Shown here: piece after piece, positions 1-17,533 of the stretch
How the letters are laid out: each line of letters starts with the position of its first letter
How positions within the stretch are numbered: the first letter of the stretch is position 1
Assembly: GCA_016212705.1 (NCBI GenBank)
Contig: JACREU010000002.1
Coordinates: 1,835-65,834, forward strand
Length of the DNA: 64,000 bases
DNA from: Deltaproteobacteria bacterium
GTDB taxonomy: Bacteria > Desulfobacterota > GWC2-55-46
Reading direction: 5' to 3'
The notes under the pieces: generated by a model
What the model saw: only the letters and a program-made list of their open reading frames with translations
Databases searched by the model: none
What the model was told of the DNA's origin: nothing
Made by a program: the position numbers and the translations under genes

Positions 1-684
1 CTCCTGAATACCATCGACAAAAACATAGTCACCGTCGAGGACCCGGTAGAGTACCACCTTAAGAGGGTCAACCAGGTCCAGGTAAATGTAAAAGTCGGCA
101 TAACATTCGCCAGCGCGCTCCGCCATATACTCAGGCAGGACCCGGACATAGTGATGATAGGAGAGATACGGGACAGGGAGACGGCCGAGATAGCCATACA
201 CGCCTCCTTGACCGGGCACCTCGTCATATCAACGGTGCACACAAACGACGCCGTCGGCACAATCTCAAGGCTCATGGACATGGGCATAGAGCCTTACCTC
301 ATTTCTTCAGCCTTGACGTGCGTCGTCGGACAGAGGCTGGTCAGGAAAGTCTGCAAGTCGTGCGCCGTAGCCTACGACCCGGACCCGCGCATGCTCACCG
401 ACCTCGGCGTTAAATTCACCGGCAACATCCCGCAGTTCTACAGGGGCGCCGGATGCCCGGCCTGCAAGGACACGGGCCTCAAAGGCAGGCTCGGCATCTA
501 CGAGGTCCTGCTCCTCGACGATGAAATCAAGTCCCTCATACTCGCAAAGGCGAACAGCAACCTGATCCTCGAAGCCGCCAGGAAAAAAGGCTACAAGACG
601 CTGCGCGTCCAGGGCGTAAGAGCGGTGGCCGGAGGATATACCACGGTAGAGGAGGTGCTCCAGGCTACTCAGTCGATAGACTGA
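1..684 (+). CDS. GspE/PilB/MshE-family pilus assembly ATPase, C-terminal part (5' truncated by the window edge)
   Basis: Frame 1 is open from base 1: [11 protein letters not shown] (Asp box), [15 protein letters not shown] (Walker B), [13 protein letters not shown] (His box), and CxxC...CxxC zinc motif. Confidence 0.95.
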
Positions 685-772
685 GGCTTGAAGAATATTG
701 AGGGAACATTTACGAAAGAGACCCTGTCAATACTCCTTCAAACCGCAATCGATCGTCCGTAATCTGGAAAGT

Positions 773-1993
773 ATGCCTTCATTCCAGTACAGGGCAAGAG
801 ACAGGCAGGGCGTGCTTGTGGTGGGCAACATGGACGCCGCGAGCCGGACCGAGCTTGAGGCCTCGTTGGACAAGCTGGGGCTTATCCCATTAAGTGTCGC
901 CGCCGGCGGGAGGAAGGCCGCGTTGCCTCCTTTTCTTGACGCGCTTTTTAAGGAAAAGGTCAAGGAGCGCGACATCATCCTCTTTTCCAGACAGCTTGCC
1001 ACGCTCTTCGGGGCGGGCGTGCCGCTCACGAGGGCGCTCTTCACCCTCGAGCGCCAGATACAGTCAAAGGTGTTCGTCGAGGTAGTAAAGAGGATCCGGG
1101 AGGACGTCGAAGGCGGCTCGTCGTTCTCAGGCGCCATATCGAAGCACCCCAAGGTCTTCGGCGAGCTCTACGCGAACATGATAGAGGCGGGAGAGGCGGG
1201 CGGCATACTCGACAACGTGCTTGACAGGCTCGCCAACATGTCCGAGAAGAGCGCCGAGAACAAGGCGAAGGTCAAGGCCGCGACCCTCTATCCCAAGATA
1301 GTCATGGGCGCGATAGGCATCGCGATTGTGATCCTCATGAACTTCGTCATCCCCAAGTTCGCGAAGCTCTACGCGAGTTTCCAGGTAGAGTTGCCCCTGC
1401 CTACGAAGATACTCATCAAGGCCTCGAACGCCTTTACCTCTTACTGGTATCTTGCCATAGTGGTCGTCGCGGCGGCCGTCTTCGGGTGGAAGACGTATGC
1501 CGCGACAAAAGAGGGGAGGCGGACCCTGGACGCCGTCCGCCTCATGGTCCCGATATTCGGCCCGCTCCTCCTTAAATCCATGCTCTCGCGTTTTTCAAGG
1601 GTCCTCGGCGCGCTCTACAAGAGCGGGCTCCCGATACTGCAGTCTCTCGACATAGTATCGCGCGCCGTCGAGAACACGGTCCTCGCCGTCGAGATAAAGA
1701 AGATAGAGGACGAGGTGAGGGCCGGCAAGGGGCTCGCCGAGCCGATGTCAAAGGCCCCGCACTTCCCGCCCATGGTAGTGCAGATGGTGACCGTCGGCGA
1801 GGACACGGGCAATCTCGACCAGATGCTCGATAAGGTCGCCGAGTATTACGACGGCGAGGTCGACAACACCATAAGGAACCTGACCACCACGCTCGAACCA
1901 ATTCTCCTCGCCTTCATATTCGCCATAGTCCTCTTCATCGCGCTCGCGATATTCCTCCCGATGTGGGACATATTGAAGATAGTGAGGCGGTAG
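773..1993 (+). CDS. PilC/GspF/MshG inner-membrane platform protein
   Basis: MPSFQYRARD start (ATG 773), FSRQLATLFGAGVPL, GEAGGILDNVL and GEDTGNLDQML; two T2SSF repeats and three TM segments. Confidence 0.95.
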   Translation: MPSFQYRARDRQGVLVVGNMDAASRTELEASLDKLGLIPLSVAAGGRKAALPPFLDALFKEKVKERDIILFSRQLATLFGAGVPLTRALFTLERQIQSKVFVEVVKRIREDVEGGSSFSGAISKHPKVFGELYANMIEAGEAGGILDNVLDRLANMSEKSAENKAKVKAATLYPKIVMGAIGIAIVILMNFVIPKFAKLYASFQVELPLPTKILIKASNAFTSYWYLAIVVVAAAVFGWKTYAATKEGRRTLDAVRLMVPIFGPLLLKSMLSRFSRVLGALYKSGLPILQSLDIVSRAVENTVLAVEIKKIEDEVRAGKGLAEPMSKAPHFPPMVVQMVTVGEDTGNLDQMLDKVAEYYDGEVDNTIRNLTTTLEPILLAFIFAIVLFIALAIFLPMWDILKIVRR

Positions 1994-1994
1994 C

Positions 1995-2423
1995 GTGAAG
2001 AAGGCCGCGGAGGGCGCGTTGCGCTCTGAAGAAGGCCGGTCGGTAATCGAGGCGCTCCTTGTGGCCGTCCTCGTCGCCGTCTTCGTCCTCATAGCCGTTG
2101 ACAGGTACTATTCGTCGATAAGGGCCGTCAGGGAGACGGCACTGCTCGTCGAGATGTCGAACTTAAGGAGCGCCTTCAGCTATTATCTAATGTTTAACGG
2201 AAAACCGCCGATATCGTTAAAAGAGCTGGTTGACAAGGGCGTTGACGCCTCGAAACGGGGGATAGAAGGGGCCGATTACAGGATAGTCATATCCGGAAAG
2301 TACGTCGAGACGATGACCCTGGACTCTGAAGGTTTTCCCATGGACCCGTTCGGGAACAGGTATTCGTATGACGCGTCTTCGGGGATGATCAGGTCGTCGA
2401 CTCGCGGCTACGAGAGATGGTGA
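1995..2423 (+). CDS. MshF-like pilin-like protein
   Basis: Class III-like leader EEG|RSVIE followed by a hydrophobic helix; DPFGNRYSY motif; lies between the platform gene and the major pilin, as mshF does. Confidence 0.7.
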   Translation: MKKAAEGALRSEEGRSVIEALLVAVLVAVFVLIAVDRYYSSIRAVRETALLVEMSNLRSAFSYYLMFNGKPPISLKELVDKGVDASKRGIEGADYRIVISGKYVETMTLDSEGFPMDPFGNRYSYDASSGMIRSSTRGYERW

Positions 2424-2452
2424 GGCGTTTTTCACAAGGTAAAACAAATATA

Positions 2453-2481
2453 TTGACCGTTTTTTGGGGCTGTGTTATAGC
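2453..2481 (+). promoter_or_regulatory. Probable sigma70 promoter of the major pilin gene
   Basis: TTGACC (2453-2458), 17 bp, TATAGC (2476-2481) with TG at the extended -10 position; GGAGG RBS before ATG 2520. Confidence 0.55.
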
Positions 2482-2519
2482 TAATATCGAGCATATTCAA
2501 TAATCAAAAGGAGGCAGGG

Positions 2520-2927
2520 ATGAGAGGGAATAAGGGTTTTACGCTTATAGAGCTTGTTATGGTCATCGTCATTCTCGCGATACTCGCGGCAGTGGCTATT
2601 CCGAGGTTCGTGGACTTGCAGTCCGACGCGAGGCTCTCTACCGCCAAGGGCATAGGCGGGGCGATATCAGGGGCAACGAACATACTGCACTCGCAGTTCC
2701 TGGTGCGGGGCACGGCGTACCAGCTCGGCACCACAGCGGGTTTTGCAAGCACGACCGCCGTTCTTTATGACGCCAACATAGCCGGAGCTACCGTCACCGC
2801 CGCCGACAACGTCACCATGGCCGGCAACGCCGTCCTCATCACGATCGACATCGGCGGAAACCCTTACACCATGACCTTCACAGGCGGCAACACGACCCTC
2901 TCCCCGAGGGTACAGTACAATTTCTAA
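2520..2927 (+). CDS. mshA: MshA-like major type IV pilin
   Basis: KG|FTLIELVMVIVILAILAAVAIPRFVDLQSDAR is the MshA-type N-terminus; it has its own promoter, RBS and terminator, as expected of a major pilin. Confidence 0.85.
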   Translation: MRGNKGFTLIELVMVIVILAILAAVAIPRFVDLQSDARLSTAKGIGGAISGATNILHSQFLVRGTAYQLGTTAGFASTTAVLYDANIAGATVTAADNVTMAGNAVLITIDIGGNPYTMTFTGGNTTLSPRVQYNF

Positions 2928-2951
2928 CCTCATCTGAGACGCATTTAAAAC

Positions 2952-3000
2952 GGACCCGTTATCGCCCTCTTAAGGAGAGTGGTAACGGGTCCTTCACTTT
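2952..3000 (+). terminator. Intrinsic terminator after the major pilin
   Basis: GGACCCGTTA...TAACGGGTCC perfect 10-bp stem (2952-2992), extendable by G-U pairs, followed by TTCACTTT. Confidence 0.75.
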
Positions 3001-3050
3001 AGGAAGGTAAAATCGACGCCGCGAATGTCAGCGCGGCGTCCGGTCCCTTA

Positions 3051-5441
3051 ATGTTTTTTTTTGCCGCCATATACCTTGCCGCGCTCGCGTCATTATACTT
3101 CTCTCAGGCGCTCGGCGGCGCGTTTCTCCTCACGGAAAGGGACTTAGGCGTCTATTTCCTGCCTCCGAGGCATCTCTGGGTCGAGATACTAAAGAACGGT
3201 GAATTCCCGCTCTGGAACCCGTATTCGTACAGCGGCCACCCGCTCCTTGCGACGCTCCAGCCGGGCATATTCTATCCCGTAAATATAATACTGCTCATAT
3301 TCCCGTTCGACCTCGCGTTCAACTTATCCATTGTAGTCCACTTTTTTCTCGCCGGGATATTCACTTACGCGCTCGTCCGGGAGCTTGGCGGCGGAAAGTG
3401 GGGCTCTCTCGCCTCGGCGGTCGCGTTCATGCTCGGAGGGTATCTCTTTTCCGCGCACAACGTGATGTCCACGCTTTTTTCCGCCGCGTGGACGCCGCTT
3501 GCGGTATTCCTCTTCTTAAGGGCCTTGCGGCGCGCCTCGTTTGGCTACGCCGTTTTCACCGGCATAGTTATGACGGTTATGTTCACCGGCGGCGGGATTG
3601 AAGTCTTCCTCGGCACTTTCGGGCTCTTGTCCGTACTCGCTTTTTTCCCGGGCATCTTTGATTTTGACGGCGCCGCGGCGAGGGCGAGTCTTGTCAAAAG
3701 GGCGGCCCTGCTTATTACAACAGCCGCTGTCTTCGTATCATTAGGGGCTGTGCAGTTATTCCCATTCATCGAGCTGGCGCGCCATTCGACGAGGGCAGGG
3801 GGGCTCTCCTTCTTTGAGGCGACGACGTGGTCGCTGGATGTCAAGGACTTCATCCAGTTCCTCATCCCAGACCCGTTCGGGTACGGCGTGAACGAGGATA
3901 AATACTGGGCCAACCAGAGCTGGCTTAAGACCATATACACCGGGGCAGTGCCTTTCGTGCTTTCCATATTCTTTTTCATGAAGGCAAGGAGAAGGGCCGT
4001 GCCTTTCGTGCTTCTCGCCCTCGTTTTCTTGAGCCTCTCGATGGGCCGCAACTTCCTATTTTACCAGTACCTCCACGCATGGTCGCCTTTTTTTGACAAA
4101 TTCAGGTATCCGGTAAAGTTCCTCTTCGCGCCGTTCCTCTTTATCTCCATCGCCGCGGGGCTTGGCTGTGATGCGCTCGTCGAGGCCGCCGGAAAACAGC
4201 GGAAGTCCGCGTTGAAAGTCATTTTTTTGCTCCTTGCGGCCGCCACACTCTCTGCCGCCGCATTCGGGTACCTGAGCTTCTCAGGCCAGGCGGTCAAGGC
4301 GTTCCTTGTGGATAGGGGAATAGACTATCCCGAGTACAACAGGGCTGAAATAAATATTTTCAACACCAAGCGGCTCCTCGCCTTCTTCATTGTATTCTCT
4401 ATCGGCCTGTACTTCGCGTACAGGTCAAAGGCCCTGCGGCTCCTCCCCTGGTTCGTCGTCGCAATGCTGTCAATAGACCTCTTTTTCGCGCACGAGGGCT
4501 ACTACTTCTCGACAAAGAGTACGGCCTATTACGACAAGGGCAATGTGATGGGTTTCATGACCGGGCGGATGGCGGCGGAGGACAACGGGCTCTTCCGGGT
4601 ATTCGTCACGCCGAAGACGATGGACGTGAACGTCGAGGTGAAGGACGCGGGAAAATTCGACAGCGACGTCTTAAGGAAAATGGACCTCCACAAGGAGCGG
4701 CTGACCGGCTACAACCTCCTCTTCCGCGTATTCGACATAAACGGCGTCGAGGTGATGAAACGCGGGGACTATGCGAGCCTCTACGACATCATGTCCAGGC
4801 GGTCTTCGATAGACGAGACCAATATACCCTCTTTGCTGAACGTAAGATACGTGGTATCTATACCTGAGATAAGGTCAAAGCGATACAGGCTCGTAAAGGT
4901 CGTAGGCGCGCTTCCAGGCGCGACGGGCTTGGAGGCTGAGAGGGCCTTGAAGATTTATGAGAACCTCGACTTCGTGCCGCGCTTCAGTCTGGCCGCTGAT
5001 TACAGGGTGATTACGAAGTCCGACGAGTTCGCCGCAACAATCTCCGGCAGAGGCTTCGACCCTAAAAAAACAGTCCTGCTTGAAGAAGAACCGTGGCCGG
5101 GCGGACAGGCCGAGGCACGCCCCATGCGGAACTGCAAAGTCGAAGTCGTAAGTTATAAGATGAACTCAATGGAGCTCCATACCGACTGCCCTGCGAGGTC
5201 CGTGCTTGTTGCTTCAGAGTCCTGGTATCCCGGCTGGAAGGCATTTGTAGACGGGAAGGAAGAGAGGATTTTAAAGGCCGACTACGTGCTCCGGGCCGTG
5301 CCGCTTGAGGGCGGAGCGCATGTCGTAAGGTTCGAGTACCGCCCAATGAGCTTTTACGCGGGCGCGTGGGTGAGCGTTGCCGCCGCCATGTCGCTCGTTG
5401 TATTCGGGATATTCCATTTTGCAAGGAAGAAAAGGGACTGA
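3051..5441 (+). CDS. YfhO-family multi-pass membrane protein (GT-C glycosyltransferase)
   Basis: GEFPLWNPYSYSGHPLLA, many TM helices, LLNVRYVV, and C-terminal SESWYPGWKAFVDGK...LRAVPLEGGAHVVRFEYRP plus a final TM. Confidence 0.85.
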   Translation: MFFFAAIYLAALASLYFSQALGGAFLLTERDLGVYFLPPRHLWVEILKNGEFPLWNPYSYSGHPLLATLQPGIFYPVNIILLIFPFDLAFNLSIVVHFFLAGIFTYALVRELGGGKWGSLASAVAFMLGGYLFSAHNVMSTLFSAAWTPLAVFLFLRALRRASFGYAVFTGIVMTVMFTGGGIEVFLGTFGLLSVLAFFPGIFDFDGAAARASLVKRAALLITTAAVFVSLGAVQLFPFIELARHSTRAGGLSFFEATTWSLDVKDFIQFLIPDPFGYGVNEDKYWANQSWLKTIYTGAVPFVLSIFFFMKARRRAVPFVLLALVFLSLSMGRNFLFYQYLHAWSPFFDKFRYPVKFLFAPFLFISIAAGLGCDALVEAAGKQRKSALKVIFLLLAAATLSAAAFGYLSFSGQAVKAFLVDRGIDYPEYNRAEINIFNTKRLLAFFIVFSIGLYFAYRSKALRLLPWFVVAMLSIDLFFAHEGYYFSTKSTAYYDKGNVMGFMTGRMAAEDNGLFRVFVTPKTMDVNVEVKDAGKFDSDVLRKMDLHKERLTGYNLLFRVFDINGVEVMKRGDYASLYDIMSRRSSIDETNIPSLLNVRYVVSIPEIRSKRYRLVKVVGALPGATGLEAERALKIYENLDFVPRFSLAADYRVITKSDEFAATISGRGFDPKKTVLLEEEPWPGGQAEARPMRNCKVEVVSYKMNSMELHTDCPARSVLVASESWYPGWKAFVDGKEERILKADYVLRAVPLEGGAHVVRFEYRPMSFYAGAWVSVAAAMSLVVFGIFHFARKKRD

Positions 5442-7483
5442 TGACTGACAAGAGGCCGGGACTTAATCTCTTCATCATAAGCTTTTTGACGCTCTTCGGC
5501 GAGATGATGTTCATAAGGTACGTCTCCTCGAACATATACCTGCTGTCATACTACAAGAACGCGATTTTGATCGCCATATTCCTCGGGATCGGCATTGGTT
5601 TTCTCACGTCGAGGTCGAAGAGGAATTACATCGAGTTCATCCCCATAGCCTCGCTCGTACTTGTCACCATCATCATCTATTTTAACGACTACCTCCGCAT
5701 AGACCTCGACCACTCGCTCAAGGACGAGTCTATCTGGCCGGAGTTCTGGGCGAACACCAGGGCGCAGTCCGTCCCGATACTGGGCGTCCTCGTGTTCTTC
5801 TACGTCGCAATAGCGCTCTACTTCATCCCGCTCGGGCAGGAGACGATACGGGCCATGTCGGCGTTCAGGCCTTTGCGCGCCTATTCCATAAACGTAGCCG
5901 GGGCGCTCGCCGGCATTGTCCTCTTCGCCATCGCGGGGTGGCTCTGGACGACGCCTCTCGTCTGGTTCGCCGTCTTCCTCGTGCCGACGCTCTGGCTCAG
6001 CCGAAAGTATTCGAACAGAGTGGTCTTTTATCTCAACGCCGCCTCTATTATCATAACCCTCTTCCTCGTCTTTTCGGCCCACTTCGGCGCCGAGGTATGG
6101 TCCCCGTACAGCAGGATCAGGGTCTATCCGTTCTCGGCGCAACCGGGCTCCGGCTTCATCTCTACGACGAACGGAAACCCGCAGGTCGGCTCCATGAACT
6201 TCGATCTCGTTTACAAAGGCCCGGAGGCGGCCCTCAACAAGGAGTCCCGCCGCATCTACGAAATACCATATGACCTCGGCGCTCCAAAGACCGTCATGGT
6301 AGTCGGCGCGGGGGCGGGCAACGAGACGGCGATGGCGCTCCGGCAGGGCGCCTCCTACATAGACGCCGTCGAGATAGACCCTGTATTCATCACGCTCGGC
6401 TCTCATTTGTCCCCGCACAGGCCGTTTTTGGACGAAAGGGTCTCTGTCCACGTGGACGACGCGAGGGCCTTCTTCCACAAGACTAAGAAAAAATACGACC
6501 TTGTCGTCATAGGCTTCCTCGACTCCCAGTACCATCTCACGCACATGTCGAACATAAGGACCGAAAACTTCGTCTACACCTACGAGAGCCTCAAACAGAC
6601 GAAAGAGCTCCTGACCGGCGACGGCGTCCTCCAGCTCAACTACAACGCGCCCAGGCCTGACATGCGCGCGAAGCTCTATGAGATATTAAAAGACGTATAC
6701 GGCGCAGACCTCGTCGTATACGCGCCGATCGGCCCGGTCTCCGGCAACATCTCCTACGTCGCTGGCCCCGGCGTGAGGGGCAAAAAGAAGGCGATCGAGG
6801 GGCTCCAGGAGATATCTTTCGGTACAATAGGGGCCCTGACGCTCCCCACCGACGACTGGCCGTTCCTCTATCTCGACGGGAAGAAGATACCGAGGGAGTA
6901 CTGGTCGATGCTCCTCCTGGTGCCCGTCATCTCTTTCGCGCTCATAAGGGTCGTAGCAGGGCGTCATGGGGCCTTCAGCCTCAAATTCTTCATGCTCGGG
7001 CTCGGGTTCATGCTCCTTGAGACAAAATCAATAACATCATTCGCGCTCCTTTTCGGCTCGACGGTGACGGTCGTCTCCATAGTCATCGCGGCGATACTCT
7101 CATCCGTCCTCCTCGCCAACTTCATAATACACAGGTGGTACATGGAGTCCGTCATTGTCCCGTACCTGCTTATTTTCGCATCGCTCGCCGTCCTTTACTT
7201 CCTGCCCTTGAGTCTGTTTATCGGGCTCAACTGGACTGCAAAGCTCGCCGTATCGCTCCTCCTCATTTCGGCCCCGATATTCTTCGCGTCGTTCGTCTTC
7301 GGCATATCCTTCGCCGGCTCGGAGAGGATGGACGTCGACATGGGCTCGAATATCTTCGGCGCGGTCGTCGGCGGTATGTCCGAGTACCTTTCGATGGCGA
7401 TGGGCTTCAACGGGCTCTACGTCGTCAGCCTCGTAGCGTACGCGATCGCCTTTATAATAGACATTAAGGGGAGGAAGGCTTGA
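5441..7483 (+). CDS. Membrane-fused spermidine-synthase-like class I SAM-dependent transferase
   Basis: ATG overlaps the upstream TGA. N-terminal TM bundle, WSPYSRI, VMVVGAGAGNE, AVEIDP, VDDARAF, PTDDWPFLYL, then a C-terminal TM bundle. Confidence 0.8.
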   Translation: MTDKRPGLNLFIISFLTLFGEMMFIRYVSSNIYLLSYYKNAILIAIFLGIGIGFLTSRSKRNYIEFIPIASLVLVTIIIYFNDYLRIDLDHSLKDESIWPEFWANTRAQSVPILGVLVFFYVAIALYFIPLGQETIRAMSAFRPLRAYSINVAGALAGIVLFAIAGWLWTTPLVWFAVFLVPTLWLSRKYSNRVVFYLNAASIIITLFLVFSAHFGAEVWSPYSRIRVYPFSAQPGSGFISTTNGNPQVGSMNFDLVYKGPEAALNKESRRIYEIPYDLGAPKTVMVVGAGAGNETAMALRQGASYIDAVEIDPVFITLGSHLSPHRPFLDERVSVHVDDARAFFHKTKKKYDLVVIGFLDSQYHLTHMSNIRTENFVYTYESLKQTKELLTGDGVLQLNYNAPRPDMRAKLYEILKDVYGADLVVYAPIGPVSGNISYVAGPGVRGKKKAIEGLQEISFGTIGALTLPTDDWPFLYLDGKKIPREYWSMLLLVPVISFALIRVVAGRHGAFSLKFFMLGLGFMLLETKSITSFALLFGSTVTVVSIVIAAILSSVLLANFIIHRWYMESVIVPYLLIFASLAVLYFLPLSLFIGLNWTAKLAVSLLLISAPIFFASFVFGISFAGSERMDVDMGSNIFGAVVGGMSEYLSMAMGFNGLYVVSLVAYAIAFIIDIKGRKA

Positions 7484-9165
7484 GAGGGGGGGGGGCCTCA
7501 AAAGCAGGCGTTATCTCCGGAGCCATAGCCGCGTGCATCCTCGTCGTATTCATCGCAACCGCTTCATCCGTCGCGCTTAAAAAAAACAACACATGGGACG
7601 AGTCCGCGCACATACTCTCGGGTTACGCCTATGTAAAAAACGGGATGGACTGGCTCTCGCCGCTTAACCACCCGGTCCTGGGCAGAGCCATATCAGGCGC
7701 GCTCCCGGCCGCGTTTCTCGACCTCGACTTTGACGAGAAGGTCCGTCCGGAGGGCGCGCCCGACTCAAACTTCTTCCCGTATTCGCTTAAGTTCCTCTAC
7801 GAGAACAGCGTCGACGGCGGCACAATCCTTTTCTGGAGCAGGCTTGGCAATATAACCCTCGCCGCACTACTCGGTATATTCGTCTTTGTCTGGTCGCGGG
7901 AGCTCTGGGGGGGAAAGGGCGCGCTCCTATCTCTCTTTCTCTATGCGCTCTGTCCCAATATTATCGCGAATGCCTCCATCGCCACGACAGACCTCCCTAT
8001 TACCGCCTTTTTCTTTATATCGCTCTACTTCCTCTATCGCCTTGACGCGAAGGGGGTTACGGCATGGAGGGCCACAGCCGCGGCAGTAGCGATAGCCTTC
8101 GCGCTCGCCTCGAAGCATACGGCATTACTCCTTTCCCCTATTGTCCTTGCGTCCTTCGGAATCGCATTAAGGCGGGAGGGCAAAAAGGCCCTGCCGTATT
8201 ACGCGTTACTGGTCATTACCGTCTATCTCTGCCTCTGGGCCTTGTACGGTTTCAGGTTCCGGTCCGGGAGCCCCAACTACGAGCCGCTCAATTGGTCCGC
8301 TTTCCAATCATCTTCACTGACGCCTGCCTTTGACTTTGCGAGGTCCTGGCGGCTCCTCCCGGAGGCGTACCTTTACAGTGTCGCCGGGGTCGTCATGGGG
8401 GCGTCCACCGGCAAGGCGGCCTTTCTCATGGGAGGGTATACGAGCACGGGCTGGTGGTATTACTTTATCGTCGCGTTCCTCATAAAGACGCCTATCCCGG
8501 CGCTGATACTCCTCGTCGCCTCCGTCCTCTACCTTTTCGCGGTCCGTGAAATCAGAAAGTGCCTGTGGCTCGTCATTCCGGCGCTTATCGTTTTTACGGC
8601 GATGTCCCTTCAAAAGGTCAACATCGGCATCCGCCATATACTCCCGGTCTATCCGTTCATATTCACGCTCATCGGTTTCGTCCCGCTAATAAATACAAAG
8701 AGCGCGAGGGTTGCCAGACTCGTCTTCGCCCTATTGATAGCCTGGTACGCCTTTTCGGCGGTTTCGATTTATCCGCACCAGCTCGCTTATTTTAACGAGT
8801 TCATCGGAGGCCCTCAAAACGGCTACAAATATCTTGTGGATTCCAACCTCGACTGGGGGCAGGACCTTAAGGGTCTCAAGGATTACATGGATAAAAACCA
8901 TATCGACAGGATAAAGCTTGCGTACTTCGGCCTCTCTGACCCGAGGTATTTCGGCATAGACTATGAGTACCTCCCGAGCTACGCGATACTCGCGCCCGTG
9001 AACGTAAAAGACGCGGTCGCTCTCAAGGGCTCTTTCGCGATAAGCGCTACCATGCTCCAGGGCGTCTACCTCGCTGACAGGGACTATTACAGGGTCTTTA
9101 GGGATATGAAACCCTCCGGGAACGTCGGATACTCCATATTCATCTATGACCTCGATAACGATTGA
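7480..9165 (+). CDS. ArnT/PMT-like lipid-carrier-dependent glycosyltransferase (GT-C)
   Basis: TTG start with GGGGAGG RBS; TWDESAH acidic motif after TM1, NHPVLG, GIRHILPVYPF, LAYFNEFIGG and DSNLDWGQDL. Confidence 0.85.
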   Translation: MRGGGASKAGVISGAIAACILVVFIATASSVALKKNNTWDESAHILSGYAYVKNGMDWLSPLNHPVLGRAISGALPAAFLDLDFDEKVRPEGAPDSNFFPYSLKFLYENSVDGGTILFWSRLGNITLAALLGIFVFVWSRELWGGKGALLSLFLYALCPNIIANASIATTDLPITAFFFISLYFLYRLDAKGVTAWRATAAAVAIAFALASKHTALLLSPIVLASFGIALRREGKKALPYYALLVITVYLCLWALYGFRFRSGSPNYEPLNWSAFQSSSLTPAFDFARSWRLLPEAYLYSVAGVVMGASTGKAAFLMGGYTSTGWWYYFIVAFLIKTPIPALILLVASVLYLFAVREIRKCLWLVIPALIVFTAMSLQKVNIGIRHILPVYPFIFTLIGFVPLINTKSARVARLVFALLIAWYAFSAVSIYPHQLAYFNEFIGGPQNGYKYLVDSNLDWGQDLKGLKDYMDKNHIDRIKLAYFGLSDPRYFGIDYEYLPSYAILAPVNVKDAVALKGSFAISATMLQGVYLADRDYYRVFRDMKPSGNVGYSIFIYDLDND

Positions 9166-9190
9166 ATGTTCACTCCCAAAATACTATAAT
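9162..9190 (+). promoter_or_regulatory. Internal sigma70 promoter for the minor-pilin genes
   Basis: TTGAAT (9162-9167), exactly 17 bp, TATAAT (9185-9190). Confidence 0.7.
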
Positions 9191-9197
9191 GCCGTCC

Positions 9198-10201: not shown

Positions 10202-10746
10202 TGATGACCGGTCCGTTCGATAAAAAGGGGTTCACCCTTATCGAGACGGTCATGGTCATCGTCCTCGTCGGCATCATCGGCACCGTCATATCCTCCATCA
10301 TGTTCCAGGGGGCGAAGTCGCTGGAGGCCGGGGACATAAGGAAAGAGCTCTCGTCCCAGGGGAGGCTCGTTGTCGAGAGGGCTTCCCGCGAGATGCGCCT
10401 TATGCGCTGTACCACGGCAGGGAACTCCTGCGTGCCCCAGGCCGCGGACGTAACGACATGGACAGCCACCGACTTGAAGTTCGTAACGGCCAATTACGAG
10501 AGGGTGGGGTTAAGGTACGACGCCGGGACGCTGAAACTCAGCTATGGCGTTGGAGCAGTTGCCGTCGACCCGGAGTACACGCTCGCCGATAACGTATCCG
10601 CGGCGTCTTTCGAATACCTTAAAAGCGACGGCACCCCGGCGGCCGCCGTGAACGAGACGTGGGTGATAATACTCAACATGACGCTCACAAGCGGCGCCGA
10701 GTCCGTGCCGTTCAGGGCCTCGGTCCACCCGAGGGGCTTTAGATGA
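10201..10746 (+). CDS. Minor pilin, MshO/PilW-like
   Basis: KKG|FTLIETVMVIVLVGII, RLVVERASREMR, LADNVSAASFEY and terminal VHPR. Confidence 0.85.
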   Translation: MMTGPFDKKGFTLIETVMVIVLVGIIGTVISSIMFQGAKSLEAGDIRKELSSQGRLVVERASREMRLMRCTTAGNSCVPQAADVTTWTATDLKFVTANYERVGLRYDAGTLKLSYGVGAVAVDPEYTLADNVSAASFEYLKSDGTPAAAVNETWVIILNMTLTSGAESVPFRASVHPRGFR

Positions 10747-11513
10747 AACGGTTGATATCGAACGGACGGGGGGCGTCGATCATCGGCGTGATACTTGTCC
10801 TCGCGGTCCTGACCCTCTCGGGCGTGATATTCGTTTCCATATTTTCTACAGGCGTGGAGGAATCCACCGGAGAGGTCTTGTCATCAAGGGCGCTTTTCGC
10901 GGCAGAGGGCGGGCTTGAGGCCGCGATAGGGCATCTTAAGAGAACGCCTGTAAGCACTTACTGGCTATGGAAGGACGGCTACCTCGCCAAGCCCGTCGGC
11001 GGAGGCACAATGGACGTTGAGGTGCTCGAGTACGAGTCGAGGGACTCTACCCTCACGGCATCGAATAAATGCGAGCCGTTCGAGTCCGTCATAGTCTCAA
11101 CCGGCGCAAACCCCGCGCGCACGGTCTATGTGTCGCTTGCGTGGTCGTCGGCGTCGAACATGGCGCTTGAGCTCTACGACAACAGCGTCGCGGACTGCAA
11201 CAACCCCGCGGCCTCGGCCACACTCATTGCGTCCTCGGCTACGGCAAATATACCGGAGACGGTCCGCTACCGTGTCCAGACCGCGCCTCCGGCAACCCTT
11301 ACGTACACCGCGCGCGTCACCGGGGCCGTCGGGGACGTTTACAAGCTCAGGATAGCCCACCCGGACGAGACGAACTTCGGCACAGGGTCCACATGCGGTC
11401 AACCGGCCGGGCCTCCGTACGACTCCTGCATGAGGGCCGTGATATCATTGGGCAGGCATCAGAACGCGAGGAGAGAGGTCTTCTCCGGTTTCAGCCGCAC
11501 GCCTTTAAGGTGA
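10743..11513 (+). CDS. Minor pilin, MshP/PilX-like (no Glu5)
   Basis: GRG|ASIIGVILVL lacks E5; SSRALFAAEGGLEAA is the PilX/MshP N-terminal motif. Confidence 0.8.
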   Translation: MKRLISNGRGASIIGVILVLAVLTLSGVIFVSIFSTGVEESTGEVLSSRALFAAEGGLEAAIGHLKRTPVSTYWLWKDGYLAKPVGGGTMDVEVLEYESRDSTLTASNKCEPFESVIVSTGANPARTVYVSLAWSSASNMALELYDNSVADCNNPAASATLIASSATANIPETVRYRVQTAPPATLTYTARVTGAVGDVYKLRIAHPDETNFGTGSTCGQPAGPPYDSCMRAVISLGRHQNARREVFSGFSRTPLR

Positions 11514-11517
11514 ATAA

Positions 11518-14019
11518 ATGAGAGCACGCACATACATCTTTTTTGCGCTCGCGTTGGTCACGGCGCTTTTGTTCCACGCGCTCGCCGGGGCCGCCGAGAC
11601 ATTCTCAGTGACCGTCCCAGCTGGCACGGAAGTCACCATGCAGGACCCGAACGCCGTAATCCCGTTTACGGTTACGAATATAACCGGCTCCACCAAGGAC
11701 ATAAGGGAGATAACATTCAGGATAGACATCGCCAAATACAACTTCAGCACAGCTACCGTCCCTCCGGCAGGGTGGTGCATAAAGGAGGCGGAGCCAGACA
11801 GGATAACCTTCGCGCTGACACAGGGCTCAGGCGCGTGCAGCAGCGGCTCCACCACGAGCCGTATATCACCCGGCGGGAGCCTCGTCTTCAATATTACAAT
11901 GTTGCCGCTTGCCGCCTCTGCGGACGTCGCCGGGGATACGCTTACGAGCGTTACCGTCGACACCCAGGGCGGGTTCTCCCGCTCTGGCGCGCTCCCGACG
12001 TGGACACGGAGGTCCTTTGAGGCGACACTCGTTGCAACACCTGAGTCCCTCGGCGTCGGAGGGACGATAACGCTCACCATGCAGGTGACAAACCGCTCGA
12101 CAACAACGCAGTCGAATATAACATCTACCCCGACGCCGCCCACGCCGTCGAGCGCGATTGCGACCCTCTCGGAGGGCCCCTACTACGGCTCGACCGGACT
12201 CGACGGCAACCACACCTCCTCGGCGACGATTATAACCGTAGCGTCGACCGCCGGCTTCACCTCGCCGGGGGCCATAAGGATCGACTCAGAGGACGTCTGT
12301 TACACCGGGACGACCGCGACTACCTTTACCGGCGTTACGCGCGGGTGCAACCTGACGACGGCCGCCTCCCACACGACAGGCGCCGTTGTCTACGCGAAGA
12401 CGCAGTACTCGCTCACGGCTGGGCAAACAGGGGTGCTAATATGGTTGTATGGCGCGACGTCGACCGGGACGGTCTACTTTACGACGCGCGCGACAAATTC
12501 CGGGTCCACCGCGAACTCCGTACTCCTTAACTCGAACACGGTCCTCATCGGCAACTTCACCGCCTTTATCACCGTAACCCCTGAAAGCGTCATAACCGGG
12601 CAGTCTGTGACTGTAGAGATGGAGGTCAGGAACAACGGTACGTCGGCCCTCATCAATATCGCGCCTTCGGCCCTTACCCCATGCGCCGGCGGGGCGACAG
12701 AGACGCTCTTAAGCGGCCCCTCGCCATCGTCCATCTCATCGCTCGGAAGCGGCTCAACAGGGGCATTCTCATGGACTTACGCCATAACCGGGTCTCTCGG
12801 CCAGACGTACTGTCTCACAGGCTACGGTACGGCCTCGGGAGGCGCGACAACGAACACCGCTACGTCGAACTCCGGCGCTATCTCCCAGTACTCGGCGACG
12901 GTCTCTCCTTCGGTCATAGCGAGCGGGACTGCGAACCAGACCCTAACCTGGTCTGTCTACAACGGAGGCGCCTGTACCCTTAAAAATATCGAGATATCTT
13001 TCCCTGGAGGCGGAGGCAACTGGACCTGCTCGTCGGTTATTGCCCCTGCCGGGTGGACAGGCTCTTGCGGAGGGACAAAGGTGACGTTTCAATCGAGCAG
13101 TTCCGCGAACGACATACCAACGGGCGGCACAAAGGCGTTCTCGATAACGTACTCGACGACCGAGACGGTCACTTCAGACAAGGTAGTCGCTTTCCCGGTA
13201 AACCCGGTCCCAAGGGGAGGGTGCGGGGGGTCGGAGGCGGAGATAGGCACCTATGTGACGGTTACGGCCTACGGACTCTCGGTCGCGCACTCTCCGGTCG
13301 GCCCGGTCTACGCCGACGGTAGCGCGACCTACACCATGACCGCCACACTCGTCTCAGGTAGTACGCCGGTCGCCGGAAAGACCGTGACCTTCTCGACGAC
13401 GAACGGCACGCTCTCTCCGGCTACAGCCGTGACCGACGCAAACGGCGAGGCAACGGTCGCGCTAATAGCCCCGAACAGCACCACAAACACCACCGCGACC
13501 GTCACCGCGGCCTATTTGAACTCATCAGGGACCGATATTGTCAGCTTTACCGGCTGGAACAAGGCGAATATCCAGTACTGGGGGTCGCTCTCCCCGGCGT
13601 CCGCCTCTTGCAACGCGACAGTCTCCTTTACCATGGTCCTTAAGAATATAAGCGGAACGACGTCCATGACGCCGAATACCGGGAGTTACTTCGCCTTCAA
13701 CGACTCGTCAGCCGGCGGCTCTTCCGTCTTTCAGGCGTACCTGAATTCCGCCGTGACGCTCTCGGCTGGCGCGACACAGACGCTCGTATTCGGCTCTCCT
13801 ACAAGCTCGGGCGGAGGCGGAGGGGTTGTCATACCGTCCACCTTCCTTGCCGGGACATACTCTCCGACGCTTAACTCCGCGCCGCCCCCGGCGAGCGGGC
13901 TCTTTTTGACCGACGGCGGGACAAACGACCAGTACCGGACGATTACGGATACCGTGACCATTTCAGGTGACTGCGGGTCGGTCAACGTCTACATCATAGA
14001 GTGGCACGAGTTCAGGTGA
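11518..14019 (+). CDS. Large secreted Ser/Thr-rich Ig-repeat protein; putative pilus tip adhesin in the mshQ/pilY1 position
   Basis: Sec signal peptide, repeated beta-sandwich units, an invasin/Big_1-like segment (ADGSATYTMTATL...GKTVTFST...TDANGEATV) and C-terminal IIEWHE. Confidence 0.75.
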   Translation: MRARTYIFFALALVTALLFHALAGAAETFSVTVPAGTEVTMQDPNAVIPFTVTNITGSTKDIREITFRIDIAKYNFSTATVPPAGWCIKEAEPDRITFALTQGSGACSSGSTTSRISPGGSLVFNITMLPLAASADVAGDTLTSVTVDTQGGFSRSGALPTWTRRSFEATLVATPESLGVGGTITLTMQVTNRSTTTQSNITSTPTPPTPSSAIATLSEGPYYGSTGLDGNHTSSATIITVASTAGFTSPGAIRIDSEDVCYTGTTATTFTGVTRGCNLTTAASHTTGAVVYAKTQYSLTAGQTGVLIWLYGATSTGTVYFTTRATNSGSTANSVLLNSNTVLIGNFTAFITVTPESVITGQSVTVEMEVRNNGTSALINIAPSALTPCAGGATETLLSGPSPSSISSLGSGSTGAFSWTYAITGSLGQTYCLTGYGTASGGATTNTATSNSGAISQYSATVSPSVIASGTANQTLTWSVYNGGACTLKNIEISFPGGGGNWTCSSVIAPAGWTGSCGGTKVTFQSSSSANDIPTGGTKAFSITYSTTETVTSDKVVAFPVNPVPRGGCGGSEAEIGTYVTVTAYGLSVAHSPVGPVYADGSATYTMTATLVSGSTPVAGKTVTFSTTNGTLSPATAVTDANGEATVALIAPNSTTNTTATVTAAYLNSSGTDIVSFTGWNKANIQYWGSLSPASASCNATVSFTMVLKNISGTTSMTPNTGSYFAFNDSSAGGSSVFQAYLNSAVTLSAGATQTLVFGSPTSSGGGGGVVIPSTFLAGTYSPTLNSAPPPASGLFLTDGGTNDQYRTITDTVTISGDCGSVNVYIIEWHEFR

Positions 14020-14120: not shown

Positions 14121-14172
14121 TTTAGTCATGGGGGGGCGAAGACCCCCTAAAATCCTGAAAAAAAGGCCCCTA

Positions 14173-15135
14173 ATGTACGAGAAATTCTTTTTCCTCAAGG
14201 AAAAGCCCTTCCACATCACGCCGGACCCCAAGTTCCTCTACTTGAGCAAGAAGCACCGCGAGGCGATAGACCTCCTTTCGTTCGGCATCGTGGAGAGAAA
14301 AGGGTTCATACTGCTTACCGGCGAGGTCGGCACCGGCAAGACTACGCTTTGCAGGGCGCTCCTTGAGAAACTGCCCGCGCTCACCGAGAGCGCGCTTATT
14401 TTGAACCCGGTCCTCTCCGAGGAGGACTTATTAAAGACGATCACCGCTGACTTCGGCCTTAACCCCGGAAAGGACACGGTAAAGGAACACCTCGACGAGC
14501 TCAACAGGTTCCTCTTGAAAAAGGCGTCCTCGGGCGGCACGGCCGTCGTCATCATAGACGAGGCGCAGAACCTTAACCCCGCGACCCTCGAGATGGTCAG
14601 GCTCCTTTCGAACCTCGAAACGGAAAAGGAGAAGCTCCTCCAGATAGTCCTCGTCGGCCAGCCTGAGCTTCGGGACAAGCTCTCGCTCCCGGAGCTCCGG
14701 CAACTCAATCAGAGGATCATCGTAAGATACCATCTGAACCCGCTCGACCTCCTGGAGACGAAGTCGTATATCGAAAACAGGCTGAAGGTCGCCGGCGGCG
14801 GAAAGGTCGAGTTCAGGGAAGACGCCATGAGGCTCGTATTCGATAAGAGCCAGGGGATTCCGAGGATGATAAATATAGTCTGCGACAGGGCCCTTACCGC
14901 GGCATTCATCGACGAGAGCCGGACCATAGGCGCCGAGACCGTCAGGAAGGCGGTATCCGAACTCGAGTCTGACGGGTATCTGCAAAACGGAGCCTCGGCG
15001 GCAGTCGCCGGAAGCGAGGCAGGACCCTCCTATGGCAGGTACATGGCACCGATTGCGGCGACTGCCTTTGTCCTTGCCTTTATAGCCGGGCTCTTCATAG
15101 GCCCGGAGGTCTATAACTTCACGGTGCTACCTTAG
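14173..15135 (+). CDS. ExeA/MshM-family AAA ATPase
   Basis: MYEKFFFLKEKPFHITPDP, Walker A GEVGTGKT, Walker B VVIIDEAQNL, LVGQPEL, GIPRMIN and a C-terminal TM. Confidence 0.93.
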   Translation: MYEKFFFLKEKPFHITPDPKFLYLSKKHREAIDLLSFGIVERKGFILLTGEVGTGKTTLCRALLEKLPALTESALILNPVLSEEDLLKTITADFGLNPGKDTVKEHLDELNRFLLKKASSGGTAVVIIDEAQNLNPATLEMVRLLSNLETEKEKLLQIVLVGQPELRDKLSLPELRQLNQRIIVRYHLNPLDLLETKSYIENRLKVAGGGKVEFREDAMRLVFDKSQGIPRMINIVCDRALTAAFIDESRTIGAETVRKAVSELESDGYLQNGASAAVAGSEAGPSYGRYMAPIAATAFVLAFIAGLFIGPEVYNFTVLP

Positions 15136-15894
15136 ATGAGCCTAATACACCAGGCCCTTAAAAAAATCGAGGCCGCCAGATCAGCTTACAACCCACCTGC
15201 GGAGTTTACGCCGCCTTCCGCGGGCAGTAGGCGGCCTAAGGCCGCGGTTATCGTTGCCGTGTTGCTCGTCGTTCTCATCCCGGCCGGGTACGCGGCGTAC
15301 TCGCTCCTATCATCCGTTGAGAAGGTTGAGCGCGCCGCTAATGACGACCCCGGACTTGACGCGCTTAAGGCCTCCATCTCCGCGCCGCGGAGACCAAAGA
15401 CGGACGTGGACCCTTCGGCGCATAACGCCAAGGGGATTGAGCTGTTCCGGTCCATGCAGTACGGGGACGCGGAAAAGGAATTCAAGGCCGCGCTCGCTCT
15501 AAGGCCGGTTGAAGCGGCATACTACAACAACCTCGCGCTCGCTCTCGCTCTCAGTGGGAGGGAGGAAGAGGCCTTGACGCTCCTTAAGGAGGCGCTCGAC
15601 TTGAACCCGCGCCACATCGAGGCGCTCAATAACCTTGGCGCGCTCCTCGAGAGGAAGGGAGATGCCGCCTCAGCGGTCAAGAGGCTCAAAGAGGCGTTGA
15701 AGATAGACCCCGGCTACGCGGACGCGCTTTTAAACCTTGGAGTGGCGCTGGAAAGACAGGGGAGGACAAGGGAGGCGCTGGAGGCATACGAGCGCTTCCT
15801 CGAGAAAGACCGTACAGGCCCGCAGGGCGAAGAGGCGGCTAAAAAGGTCATGAGGCTTAAATCCGGGCTCATAATAAAAGCGCGTGAGGGCTGA
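15136..15894 (+). CDS. MshN-like membrane-anchored TPR protein
   Basis: MSLIHQALKK start, one TM, and about four TPR repeats (YYNNLAL, ALNNLGA, ALLNLGV). Confidence 0.85.
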   Translation: MSLIHQALKKIEAARSAYNPPAEFTPPSAGSRRPKAAVIVAVLLVVLIPAGYAAYSLLSSVEKVERAANDDPGLDALKASISAPRRPKTDVDPSAHNAKGIELFRSMQYGDAEKEFKAALALRPVEAAYYNNLALALALSGREEEALTLLKEALDLNPRHIEALNNLGALLERKGDAASAVKRLKEALKIDPGYADALLNLGVALERQGRTREALEAYERFLEKDRTGPQGEEAAKKVMRLKSGLIIKAREG

Positions 15895-16937
15895 TGCTAC
15901 CCGGCAAACGTAACCTCATAGGCGTTGACATCGGGTCGTATTCGGTGAAGGTCGTCTCTCTCGTTGGGACTGAAGGCTCCTATACCCTCGCAGGCGCGGC
16001 CCTCTTCAGATTGCCCAGCGAGGGCGGAGAGGCAGTGCCGGTGACGCCCCCCTTTCTCTCCGGCATATTGCAGGCCAAAAGGATAAAGGGCAGGAGGGCC
16101 GCCGCCCTTATGAACGGCCCCTCTCTCATATTCAAGCATTTGAAACTCCCGGTCATGCCGGAAAAGGACCTGAAGGAGGCGGTCCGCTGGGAGGTGCGCA
16201 AAGACCTCGCCATCGCGGTATCCGCGGCAGACCTCATCCTCGATTACATGAGCGCCGCAAAGACAGCCAAACCCGGGGACAATACCGTATCCATCGTCGC
16301 CTTCGCGGCGGTAAGGAGCGACGTTGAACGCACCATCTCCCTTTTCAGGGACGCGGGCCTCGAACTCCGCGTCCTCGAGGTCGCTCCTTCCGCGCTCCTA
16401 TTCTCATTCAACATCAGCAACGCCTGGGAACCCGGCGTCAACTACGCGATGCTCGATATCGGCGAGACCAAATCCACGCTCGCCATACTCAAGGACAAGA
16501 AGCTCTCCTTTACGCGCGAGATAGGGATGGGAGGCGCTGACTTCACTAAGTTCCTCGCCTCGGGGATAGGTAAGCCCGAGGCGGACGCCGAGGATTACAA
16601 GATAGCCTTCGGTCTTACTGCCGAAGACGAAAATGAGGACAAGGCGAAGGAGCTCCTCACCCAGGCCGTCGAGAGGCTCTGCACCGAGGTCCAGCGGTCG
16701 TTCGATTACTTCCAGGCGCAGTTCAGGGAGGGAAGCGTAGCCAAGCTCTTCATCTCTGGCGGCTCGTCAAGGCTCAAGGGCATAGAGGCTGTCATCTCGA
16801 AGATAATAGCGGTCCCTGTCTTCAAGGACGACCCATTGAGGTCCATACAGATACCGAAGGCGTTCGACAGGGCGGAACTCGCGGAAATCGCCCCGTGCCT
16901 GACGATAGCCGTAGGGCTCGCCGCGAGGAAGTCATGA
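15894..16937 (+). CDS. pilM: PilM actin-like alignment protein
   Basis: IGVDIGSYSVKVV, LDIGETKS, EVQRSFDYF, ISGGSSRLKG and AVGLAAR. Confidence 0.92.
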   Translation: MLPGKRNLIGVDIGSYSVKVVSLVGTEGSYTLAGAALFRLPSEGGEAVPVTPPFLSGILQAKRIKGRRAAALMNGPSLIFKHLKLPVMPEKDLKEAVRWEVRKDLAIAVSAADLILDYMSAAKTAKPGDNTVSIVAFAAVRSDVERTISLFRDAGLELRVLEVAPSALLFSFNISNAWEPGVNYAMLDIGETKSTLAILKDKKLSFTREIGMGGADFTKFLASGIGKPEADAEDYKIAFGLTAEDENEDKAKELLTQAVERLCTEVQRSFDYFQAQFREGSVAKLFISGGSSRLKGIEAVISKIIAVPVFKDDPLRSIQIPKAFDRAELAEIAPCLTIAVGLAARKS

Positions 16938-17533
16938 AGGGCATAAACCTCATACCCGAAGAGATACAGAGGGGATGGCGCATAAGGAAGTGGCGGCTCG
17001 CCTTCATCGCTTCTTTTGCCTGCTATCTCCTTTTCCTCGTAGCGGTCTTCGCGCTCCAGCGAACGGAGCTTAAGGGGCTTAAGGCCGTGGAGGCCGCGCT
17101 CATCTCCCAAAAAGACGCCCTCTCGGGCAGGAGCTCCGAGTACGCGCTCCTGACAAAAAAACTCTCGGATATACACGCGGCGGAAGGGGAGCTCAGCCAG
17201 AGGCTTGGAGTCGCCTCTGAGCTGAAGGACAGGAGGGTATCCTGGTCGTTCGTGCTCAAAAAGCTCAGCCACGAGGTGCCTAAGGGCGTGTGGCTCCGGT
17301 CCCTCTCCACATCCGACGTACAGGGCACGACTGAGAAAAAGGTCAAGTTCCTCGGCTCGGCCACAAACAACAGGGCGATCGCCGACTTCATCTTCAAAAT
17401 AGAGAACTCCGGCAACTTCAGGGACGCGGCCCTCTCGTACTCGCAGAAAAGGGAGATGGGCGGCACATCCGTCTATGACTTCGAGGTCTACGCGACCTTG
17501 AGAAAGACAGGCGAGGTGCTCTATGAATGGTGA
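16934..17533 (+). CDS. pilN: PilN-domain protein
   Basis: INLIP motif, TM, coiled coil and VPKGVWLRSL. Confidence 0.9.
   Translation: MKGINLIPEEIQRGWRIRKWRLAFIASFACYLLFLVAVFALQRTELKGLKAVEAALISQKDALSGRSSEYALLTKKLSDIHAAEGELSQRLGVASELKDRRVSWSFVLKKLSHEVPKGVWLRSLSTSDVQGTTEKKVKFLGSATNNRAIADFIFKIENSGNFRDAALSYSQKREMGGTSVYDFEVYATLRKTGEVLYEW

Follow-up and report, generated by a model that had tools for sequence, protein, structure and literature searches.

What do three consecutive genes for large membrane proteins do in the middle of a type IV pilus locus, between the major pilin and the minor pilins? This question is raised by a 64,000-nucleotide stretch of contig JACREU010000002.1 (hereafter the window), which belongs to a metagenome-assembled genome (MAG) of a Deltaproteobacteria bacterium, 1.98 Mb long and 85.7% complete. 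The first of the three genes encodes a YfhO-type protein resembling glycosyltransferases of the GT-C fold. The second, called here the middle gene, encodes a membrane protein of the major facilitator superfamily (MFS) fold carrying an inserted domain with the fold of spermidine synthase (SpeE), and the third a GT-C-like protein of the PMT_2 family, to which ArnT-like and glycosyltransferase family 39 (GT39) enzymes belong. The original prediction, made from this DNA, saw the three genes as an undescribed, swappable cassette that tailors the pilus. Our analysis suggests that the locus probably carries a periplasmic cassette of its own for the O-glycosylation of pilus proteins from polyprenyl-phosphate sugars; gene context and predicted fold give this reading good support.

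The YfhO-type protein beside the pilin

Loci with a YfhO-type gene of this subfamily were collected by a profile scan with a YfhO alignment, keeping one genome per species. According to the titles of their records, the 78 loci obtained belong to Thermodesulfobacteriota and 'Deltaproteobacteria' MAGs, Nitrospinota, Nitrospirota, an anammox planctomycete and an Emcibacteraceae MAG. An open reading frame (ORF) with a pilin motif (class III leader) lies directly upstream of YfhO, on the same strand, in 71 of the 78; elsewhere the upstream pilin is cut by the contig end (three loci), DNA upstream of YfhO is missing (two), the pilin is found 2 kb upstream (one) or a divergent pilin stands beside YfhO (one). 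The 71 pilins form a single family of about 130 residues, and 53 of them are free of cysteine. This linkage, and a gene order kept, within the order of this bacterium, in nine of nine loci with the middle gene and six of six complete loci without it, support the proposal that the cassette is tied to the pilus locus. A distant YfhO paralogue on another contig of the source genome (C100), which can serve as a partial control, has no pilin-motif ORF nearby.

It could be argued that the GT-C enzymes serve an acceptor unrelated to the pilus (lipopolysaccharide, an exopolysaccharide or some other glycoconjugate of the envelope) and that they reside in a pilus locus only for co-regulation. YfhO and ArnT/PMT_2 relatives do modify teichoic acids and lipid A (for part of this see Rismondo 2018, in the portion of the source available), and the genome has many GT-C genes. 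Moreover, genes for Wzi, Poly_export, Wzy_C, glycosyltransferase family 2 (GT2), GT9 and PMT_2 form a polysaccharide cluster at 39.5-64 kb of the window, and Wzy_C genes follow the pilin-YfhO pair in Nitrospinota. A pilin immediately upstream in so many loci across phyla is, however, hard to explain without a pilus-related acceptor, and the C100 paralogue, lying away from pilin motifs, also speaks against this explanation, which we regard as unlikely.

Concerning the protein itself, the Pfam family YfhO (PF09586) is matched with an E-value of 1.7e-8 (33.8 bits, cut-off 28.5) and aligns only to residues 694-775, the last 82; the same family is the precomputed label on nearly all YfhO-type homologues among the matches listed. 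The AlphaFold 2 (AF2) model, with a pLDDT of 89.3, has the GT-C fold plus a C-terminal domain (about residues 598-763 of the model) made mostly of beta strands. Foldseek matched this model to AftD (6w98, E 9.2e-8) and ArnT (5f15, E 5.7e-6), and also to STT3, AftA, AglB, PglB and Emb, with 20 chains at E <= 0.001, so that structure prediction bears out the earlier assignment to the GT-C enzymes. At the level of sequence, profiles made from the YfhO and PMT_2 alignments met nothing meaningful among the sequences of solved structures (best E 0.24 and 0.29), and the equivalogs for PgfM1 and PgfM2 (NF047589 and NF047590) were far from being reached (19 bits against 1400 and 15.4 against 1500). The wider family is very large: with E <= 1e-30 as the limit, 21,264 cluster representatives match the YfhO profile.

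Of 74 relatives, 71-72 retain E29-R30-D31, a motif that comes after the first helix, and all retain R248, R352 and K356. The loop with this motif (loop 1) would face the periplasm, judging from hydropathy and the model. With this conservation and fold the protein looks like an enzyme, and its donor may be a polyprenyl-phosphate sugar, as suggested by PgfS/ArnC-like GT2 genes in the genome and by GT2 genes beside pilin-YfhO elsewhere. A different explanation would be that the YfhO-type protein is a non-catalytic accessory factor of the pilin, a chaperone or an assembly factor that merely has a GT-C fold. The short extent of the Pfam alignment is compatible with this idea, and among the pilin accessory proteins whose genes follow pilA there are some without enzyme function (PMC11841053, in the portion of the article available). 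Nevertheless, the E-R-D motif and the invariant basic residues are maintained in 71 to 74 of 74 relatives across phyla, and GT2 sugar-carrier synthases and sugar-tailoring genes travel with YfhO, and to this alternative we give almost no weight.

In the literature, with subscription journals mostly outside the search, we found no paper on pilin-linked YfhO enzymes and none linking a pilin with GT39; a paper on a cyanobacterial pilin glycosyltransferase (PMC9306852) contains none of the GT-C, PMT or YfhO terms looked for.

Fixed and variable genes of the cassette

The third protein of the window matches PMT_2 with an E-value of 6.6e-9 (36.6 bits, cut-off 26.1). An Asp-Glu pair in loop 1 is a hallmark of the PMT_2 family of GT39/ArnT-like enzymes, and here D40, E41 and H44 are invariant in 44 aligned relatives, so that both GT-C proteins of the cassette keep acidic loop-1 motifs. 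Orthologues are present at the same place in all 15 complete loci of the order. The nine loci that were retrieved with the middle gene, in which identity falls to about 48-65%, all keep the succession pilin, YfhO, SpeE-like gene, PMT_2 and minor pilins, and all six complete loci without it keep pilin, YfhO, PMT_2 and minor pilins; among the partial loci without it, two show PMT_2 and three are cut by contig ends. As none of the 15 complete loci departs from this arrangement, both GT-C genes are constant components of the pilus locus here and only the middle gene varies, contrary to the idea that the trio is exchanged as one unit. Relatives with an empty site, lacking both GT-C genes, were also looked for and none was seen among the 15 complete loci, the three loci cut by contig ends being uninformative. 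YfhO is the universal partner of the pilin, PMT_2 a lineage-level partner and the SpeE-like gene an optional one.

To see which genes follow YfhO more widely, all 78 loci were labelled by phmmer, and the first labelled gene downstream was tallied in 64 judged rows (63 loci and the window). This gene is SpeE-like in 11 rows, a Wzy_C protein in 11, a class I methyltransferase in 10, the PMT_2 orthologue in nine, a B12 radical-SAM enzyme in four, a minor pilin in four and a GT2-methyltransferase fusion in three; a GT2, another PMT_2 type, a second YfhO and GspE account for two each, and four rows have none. In a Pfam run on 96 ORFs from 18 distant loci, glycan genes were found to recur after pilin-YfhO, among them those for GT2, fusions of GT2 with a methyltransferase, methyltransferases of class I, radical-SAM enzymes of the B12 type, Wzy_C and PMT_2. 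Two loci (L075 and L094) have GT2, methyltransferase and radical-SAM genes between YfhO and a PMT_2 orthologue of 46-50% identity. The SpeE-like gene of the window fills the very interval that holds these genes, which therefore behaves as a variable tailoring slot; what can be retained of the swappable module is this interval and not the trio itself.

Other arrangements were observed in the same collection. In Nitrospinota (L085, L091, L099, L100, L104, L108 and others) a Wzy_C gene, of the O-antigen ligase/PglL-like type, directly follows pilin-YfhO, so that two different candidate pilin-glycosylating enzymes adjoin. Tandem YfhO-type genes after the pilin are found in L097 (6846-12407), from the anammox MAG, where a GT2 and a methyltransferase come next, and in L132. 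A fusion of GT2 and class I methyltransferase, of about 470-540 residues, adjoins pilin-YfhO in L092, L096 and L131 (also in L101 and L121), which suggests that the lipid-linked sugar may be methylated before transfer.

The middle gene has a more complex distribution. It was found in 12 of the 77 genomes of the order, and on the YfhO tree it needs six changes, of which well-supported branches force at least five. On its own tree, adjacency to YfhO needs four changes (13 relatives adjacent, 35 not adjacent and 42 not judged). Most relatives lie away from pili and GT-C genes, an outcome of the homologue survey that goes against the association proposed in the original prediction. We considered whether distant relatives are usually beside GT-C genes and rejected it, as the 80 metagenome loci of the family have mixed neighbours: only L196 and L198 have YfhO as a direct neighbour, L182 has it within about 4 kb, and PMT_2 is a direct neighbour in L168 and L178.

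From these counts one may hypothesize that the middle gene is unrelated to the pilus: its product would be a common housekeeping protein of the membrane, a transporter equipped with an accessory domain, and the gene would have arrived several times between two co-transcribed membrane genes. The repeated gains or losses and the scarcity of YfhO and PMT_2 neighbours in metagenomes are in its favour, and so is the restriction to 12 genomes when the gene for an 833-residue secreted protein of the pilus locus is found in 26 of the 77. On the other hand, wherever it is present in the order the middle gene occupies precisely the place between YfhO and PMT_2, its stop and start codons overlapping those of its neighbours, and separate lineages of it (L113, L196 and L198) stand directly after pilin-type YfhO genes. 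An unrelated passenger is possible but somewhat doubtful; in our preferred reading the gene is an optional member of the putative glycosylation cassette.

The Spermine_synth family of Pfam matches this protein with an E-value of 3.6e-6 (27.1 bits, cut-off 22.9). Its AF2 model (pLDDT 88.2) consists of seven helices, a domain at about residues 213-484 and seven further helices. The domain has the spermidine synthase fold, including the N-terminal beta domain, as indicated by a profile match with 1uir (E 4.5e-18), by Foldseek (1uir_B, E 5e-8) and by VIA-align comparisons with spermidine synthases (Z 17.8 for 9q41 and 17.4 for 6qmm). The membrane part has the MFS fold: VIA-align found NorA with Z 21.0 over 312 residues (root mean square deviation 3.9), followed by OCTN2 (19.7), SotB (18.9), VMAT2 (18.7) and LtaA (16.2). 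At E <= 0.01 no Pfam MFS family was found, nor did NF037959 (fused MFS/spermidine synthase, cut-off 40 bits) match, and the NCBIfam equivalog cut-offs for aminopropyltransferases were not reached, PRK00811 being the best with 33.4 bits against 260.

MFS proteins consist of two bundles of six helices, and their termini and central loop lie in the cytoplasm. In the middle protein two extra helices flank the inserted domain, which sits between the two MFS lobes, and in 62 family members the loops predicted on the cytoplasmic side carry 1.7-2.9 Lys+Arg each, against 0.02-0.6 in the short loops of the opposite side. Because of the extra helices and these charges, the spermidine-synthase-fold domain is predicted to be periplasmic. 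E311 is found in at least 90% of the 62 sequences, and D313 and D340 in all, at positions that align with nucleoside-binding acidic residues of 1uir; helix 1 has an invariant charged pair, E21/R26. Two hallmarks of aminopropyltransferases are the Asp or Glu of the glycine-rich loop (GGG[DE]G) and the first Asp of D-x-x-D-P. Compared with 1uir, the family of the middle protein has GAGAGN instead of GGGEGA, where Ala replaces the loop Glu, and 'fgllDS' instead of 'IIDLTDP', where Gly replaces the first Asp. With two hallmark residues replaced, the domain is therefore not a canonical spermidine synthase, and the earlier suggestion that this enzyme methylates or aminoalkylates the glycosylated product is weakened both by these replacements and by the predicted periplasmic location.

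It may be imagined that the middle protein is a membrane-spanning tailoring enzyme of a new kind, whose MFS part works as a proton-coupled exporter, feeding cationic S-adenosylmethionine (SAM), decarboxylated SAM or a polyamine to the periplasmic domain of the same protein, which would alkylate the pilus glycan or protein outside the cytoplasm. The flanking helices, the loop charges, the three conserved acidic residues and the E21/R26 pair fit with such a function; to our knowledge no SAM-type chemistry takes place outside the cytoplasm, and we consider this scheme distinctly unlikely.

The nearest described proteins are the fused MFS/spermidine synthase proteins of NF037959 and the membrane 'polyamine aminopropyltransferases' of the PRK03612 type, which like the middle protein combine an MFS-like membrane part and a spermidine-synthase-fold domain in one chain; we know of no member of either group with a tested function. 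The middle protein differs from them in that its domain is inserted between the lobes and has the two flanking helices. A literature search on membrane spermidine-synthase-like proteins with glycosyltransferases gave nothing relevant among the matches listed, and an Atlas search returned only further unnamed Spermine_synth clusters. The source genome also has a true NF037959 member, a paralogue of 870 residues on contig C7 (locus L224, 1611-4223; 118.6 bits, cut-off 40), which sits between a gene for a Tgl/PilW-like TPR lipoprotein and a PilZ-domain gene.

Layout of the locus and its junctions

The features of the window are collected in Table 1. Judging by their names, the close homologues come from groundwater 'Deltaproteobacteria' or Thermodesulfobacteriota MAGs.

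Table 1. Position of the pilus locus and of glycan-related genes in the window.
Feature	Position	Strand	Matches and remarks
Pilus assembly ATPase, 3' part	1..684	+	T2SSE E 2e-77; full gene 567 aa, begins upstream of the window
GspF/PilC-type platform protein	698..1993	+	T2SSF E 4.5e-65; GspF and PilC models E ~1e-109, under equivalog cut-offs
Conserved 142-aa gene, between platform and pilin genes	1995..2423	+	no Pfam/NCBIfam match; position kept in relatives
Major type IV pilin, 135-aa precursor, leader MRGNKG	2520..2927	+	N_methyl E 8.8e-9; TIGR02532 34.5 bits, cut-off 16.3
Stable stem-loop after pilin gene	2952..2992	+	folding energy; second stem ~3012-3043
YfhO-type GT-C-like protein, 796 aa	3051..5441	+	Pfam YfhO
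Middle gene: MFS-fold membrane protein with spermidine-synthase-fold insert, 680 aa, 14 helices	5441..7483	+	Pfam Spermine_synth, model
PMT_2 (GT39/ArnT-like) GT-C-like protein, 561 aa, TTG start	7480..9165	+	Pfam PMT_2
Minor pilin 1	~9189-9788	+	N_methyl E 1e-7
Minor pilin 2	~9788-10201	+	N_methyl E 1.4e-7
Minor pilin 3	~10222-10746	+	N_methyl E 2.9e-5
256-aa gene, then 833-aa secreted protein (11518-14019)	10743..14019	+	no family match (Pfam, NCBIfam)
AAA_22 (MshM/ExeA-like) ATPase, TPR protein, PilM, PilN, PilO, secretin	14128..19824	+	profile matches
Second glycan cluster	47126-63860	-	GT4, GT2, two B12 radical-SAM, GT9, Wzy_C, PMT_2, PgfS-like GT2, GT1-type, Wzx-like flippase (Polysacc_synt)
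Second, unrelated PMT_2 protein, adjoining the PgfS/ArnC-like GT2	55091-56872	-	PMT_2 E 2.1e-9
PgfS/ArnC-like polyprenyl-phosphate GT2	56879-57859	-	PgfS model E 5.1e-68, 229 bits, cut-off 500; ArnC E 8.3e-42

The three overlapping membrane genes are real, with overlaps of one and four nucleotides. At the first junction TGATG (5439-5443) has one base common to stop and start, with AAGGAAGAAAAGGGA upstream; the ORF of the middle gene spans 5366-7483, and the ATG at 5441 is its likely start. At the second junction the four bases TTGA (7480-7483) are common to both genes, with AAGGGGAGGAAGG upstream. The starts of the middle gene and of PMT_2 are each preceded by a purine-rich, Shine-Dalgarno-like stretch.

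The gap between the pilin and YfhO is 123 nucleotides long and had been described as containing the pilin terminator. A folding computation gave the spacer, taken as 127 nucleotides, a minimum free energy of -53.4 kcal/mol (z -5.4), equalled by none of 200 shuffles, and the strong stem-loop is indeed present. Its tail, however, is poor in U, and because of this the role of terminator is only an inference; the structure is possibly an attenuator or a terminator.

A new consensus promoter for the minor pilins, placed at 9162-9190, found no support. The sequence TTGAAT-17-TATAAT agrees with the consensus at 10 of 12 positions, but matches of this kind occur at chance frequency: four promoter-like sites were found in 1900-10000, against 4.1 +/- 2.6 expected. 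Furthermore, the claimed -10 hexamer (9185-9190) overlaps the likely ATG of the first minor pilin at 9189 (an alternative start is TTG 9162), and therefore a transcript from that promoter would begin inside the minor-pilin gene.

The pilus had also been called MSHA-type. This agrees with the assembly ATPase, which is of the MshE type: in the full protein the MshEN domain is found with an E-value of 1.2e-20, and the MshE-related cyclic di-GMP (c-di-GMP) motif NF053729 scores 52.6 bits (cut-off 38). It does not agree with the secretin, which passes the PilQ subfamily model (296.4 bits against 284.35) and stays below the cut-off of the MshL model (136.4 bits against 250.2). Between the platform and pilin genes, the 142-residue protein has a hydrophobic, pilin-like N-terminus after G-R-S-V-I-E, with Glu at +5 but Arg at +1, and no N_methyl match.

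Possible donor and acceptor, and known glycosylation systems

In the pathway that we propose, whose substrates, donors and chemical steps are all deduced from the observed gene order, conservation, folds and conserved motifs, a cytoplasmic GT2 would load a sugar onto polyprenyl phosphate, and the lipid-linked sugar would be flipped to the periplasmic face. There the YfhO-type GT-C protein would transfer it to Ser/Thr of the major pilin, and the PMT_2-type protein would add a second sugar or serve another pilus protein, for instance the S/T/P-rich 833-residue one. The product of the middle gene, where present, would most likely tailor the glycan or the carrier, or supply or flip a substrate.

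Candidates for the first step are the five PgfS/ArnC-like GT2 genes of the source genome, in which two YfhO matches were also counted. One of the five is inside the window (56879-57859) and is a possible supplier of the donor for the pilus cassette. It belongs to the second glycan cluster, which might feed the cassette; the gene set of this cluster is much alike that found directly beside pilin-YfhO in L094, L075 and L101.

As to the acceptor, the major pilin has 17% Ser+Thr and no cysteine. The 833-residue secreted protein is a plausible O-glycosylation target by its composition, with 29.8% Ser+Thr, 12 cysteines and an S/T/P-rich tract, RSTTTQSNITSTPTPPTPSS, at residues 193-212, and this tract is more similar than the pilin to the Ser/Thr-rich substrates of streptococci.

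The closest known arrangement is the pilA-tfpW cassette of group IV P. aeruginosa, described here from the portion of the report available. TfpW is a GT-C enzyme encoded directly after pilA, as the YfhO-type gene follows its pilin, and it glycosylates the pilin with a lipid-linked sugar made in the cytoplasm; like the YfhO-type protein, it has an acidic motif in periplasmic loop 1 and a large periplasmic C-terminal domain (10.1101/2020.04.19.049825). The two proteins, compared by description only, differ in detail: TfpW carries the motif DDX, a proline-rich motif like that of Emb and a TPR domain at the C-terminus (10.1101/2020.04.19.049825), whereas the YfhO-type protein has E-R-D, belongs to the YfhO family and ends in beta strands. 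Pfam found no TPR in the YfhO-type protein, and a proline-rich motif like that of TfpW was not searched for. Also, no genes for D-arabinofuranose synthesis were seen here, which is a further difference from TfpW.

At the level of the protein family, similarity is found with streptococci. According to the portion of the source available, the YfhO-family proteins PgtC2 and PgfM1 work together with the GT-A enzymes GtrB and PgfS in the O-glycosylation of extracytoplasmic protein regions rich in Ser/Thr: the sugar is first linked to undecaprenyl phosphate by the GT-A enzyme and then passed on by the GT-C enzyme, outside the cytoplasm, to Ser/Thr of proteins of the surface (10.1101/2024.05.05.592596). 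Two GT-C enzymes can share one such pathway, as PgfM1 and PgfM2 do with PgfS (10.1101/2024.05.05.592596). PgfM1, PgfM2 and PgtC2 fall in the same Pfam family as the window protein, and a PgfS-like GT2 is present in the window too. The streptococcal enzymes, however, are from Gram-positive bacteria, their substrates are Ser/Thr-rich disordered tails and adhesins rather than pilins, and the second GT-C enzyme is of the YfhO type, whereas in our cassette it is of the PMT_2 type.

Several observations weigh against pilus glycosylation by this cassette. The set of 78 loci was found with patterns specific to this YfhO subfamily, and related loci are kin, so that the counts overstate independence and describe one clade and not independent trials. 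With regard to the middle gene, 35 of the 48 judged relatives are not beside YfhO and have mixed neighbours, and one homologue (L143, 56% identity) does not belong to any pilus locus. PMT_2 matches in the genome number 11 (nine above the cut-off); GT-C genes are common in it, and chance could account for part of the adjacency. The pilus locus of the window lacks a GT2 or flippase gene of its own, and no GtrA-family gene was found in the genome, whose completeness of 85.7% means that absence is not shown. Finally, the pilin has no poly-Ser/Thr tract like that of the streptococcal substrates, and the sugar could go instead to some other pilus protein, or to a molecule that is not a protein.

Glycosylation of pili shapes adhesion and phage susceptibility, and the routes known to us are few, namely the PglL/TfpO-type oligosaccharyltransferases and TfpW. 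If our reading is correct, a pilin-tied YfhO enzyme distributed across several phyla would be a third, widespread route to pilus glycosylation, accompanied by a slot of variable content for sugar tailoring (methyltransferases, radical-SAM enzymes, a PMT_2 enzyme or the MFS-SpeE fusion). Protein O-glycosylation by the YfhO family, described in streptococci, would then also occur on the pili of Gram-negative bacteria, and the membrane spermidine-synthase-like proteins, a large and uncharacterised family, would gain a first context in which they can be tested.

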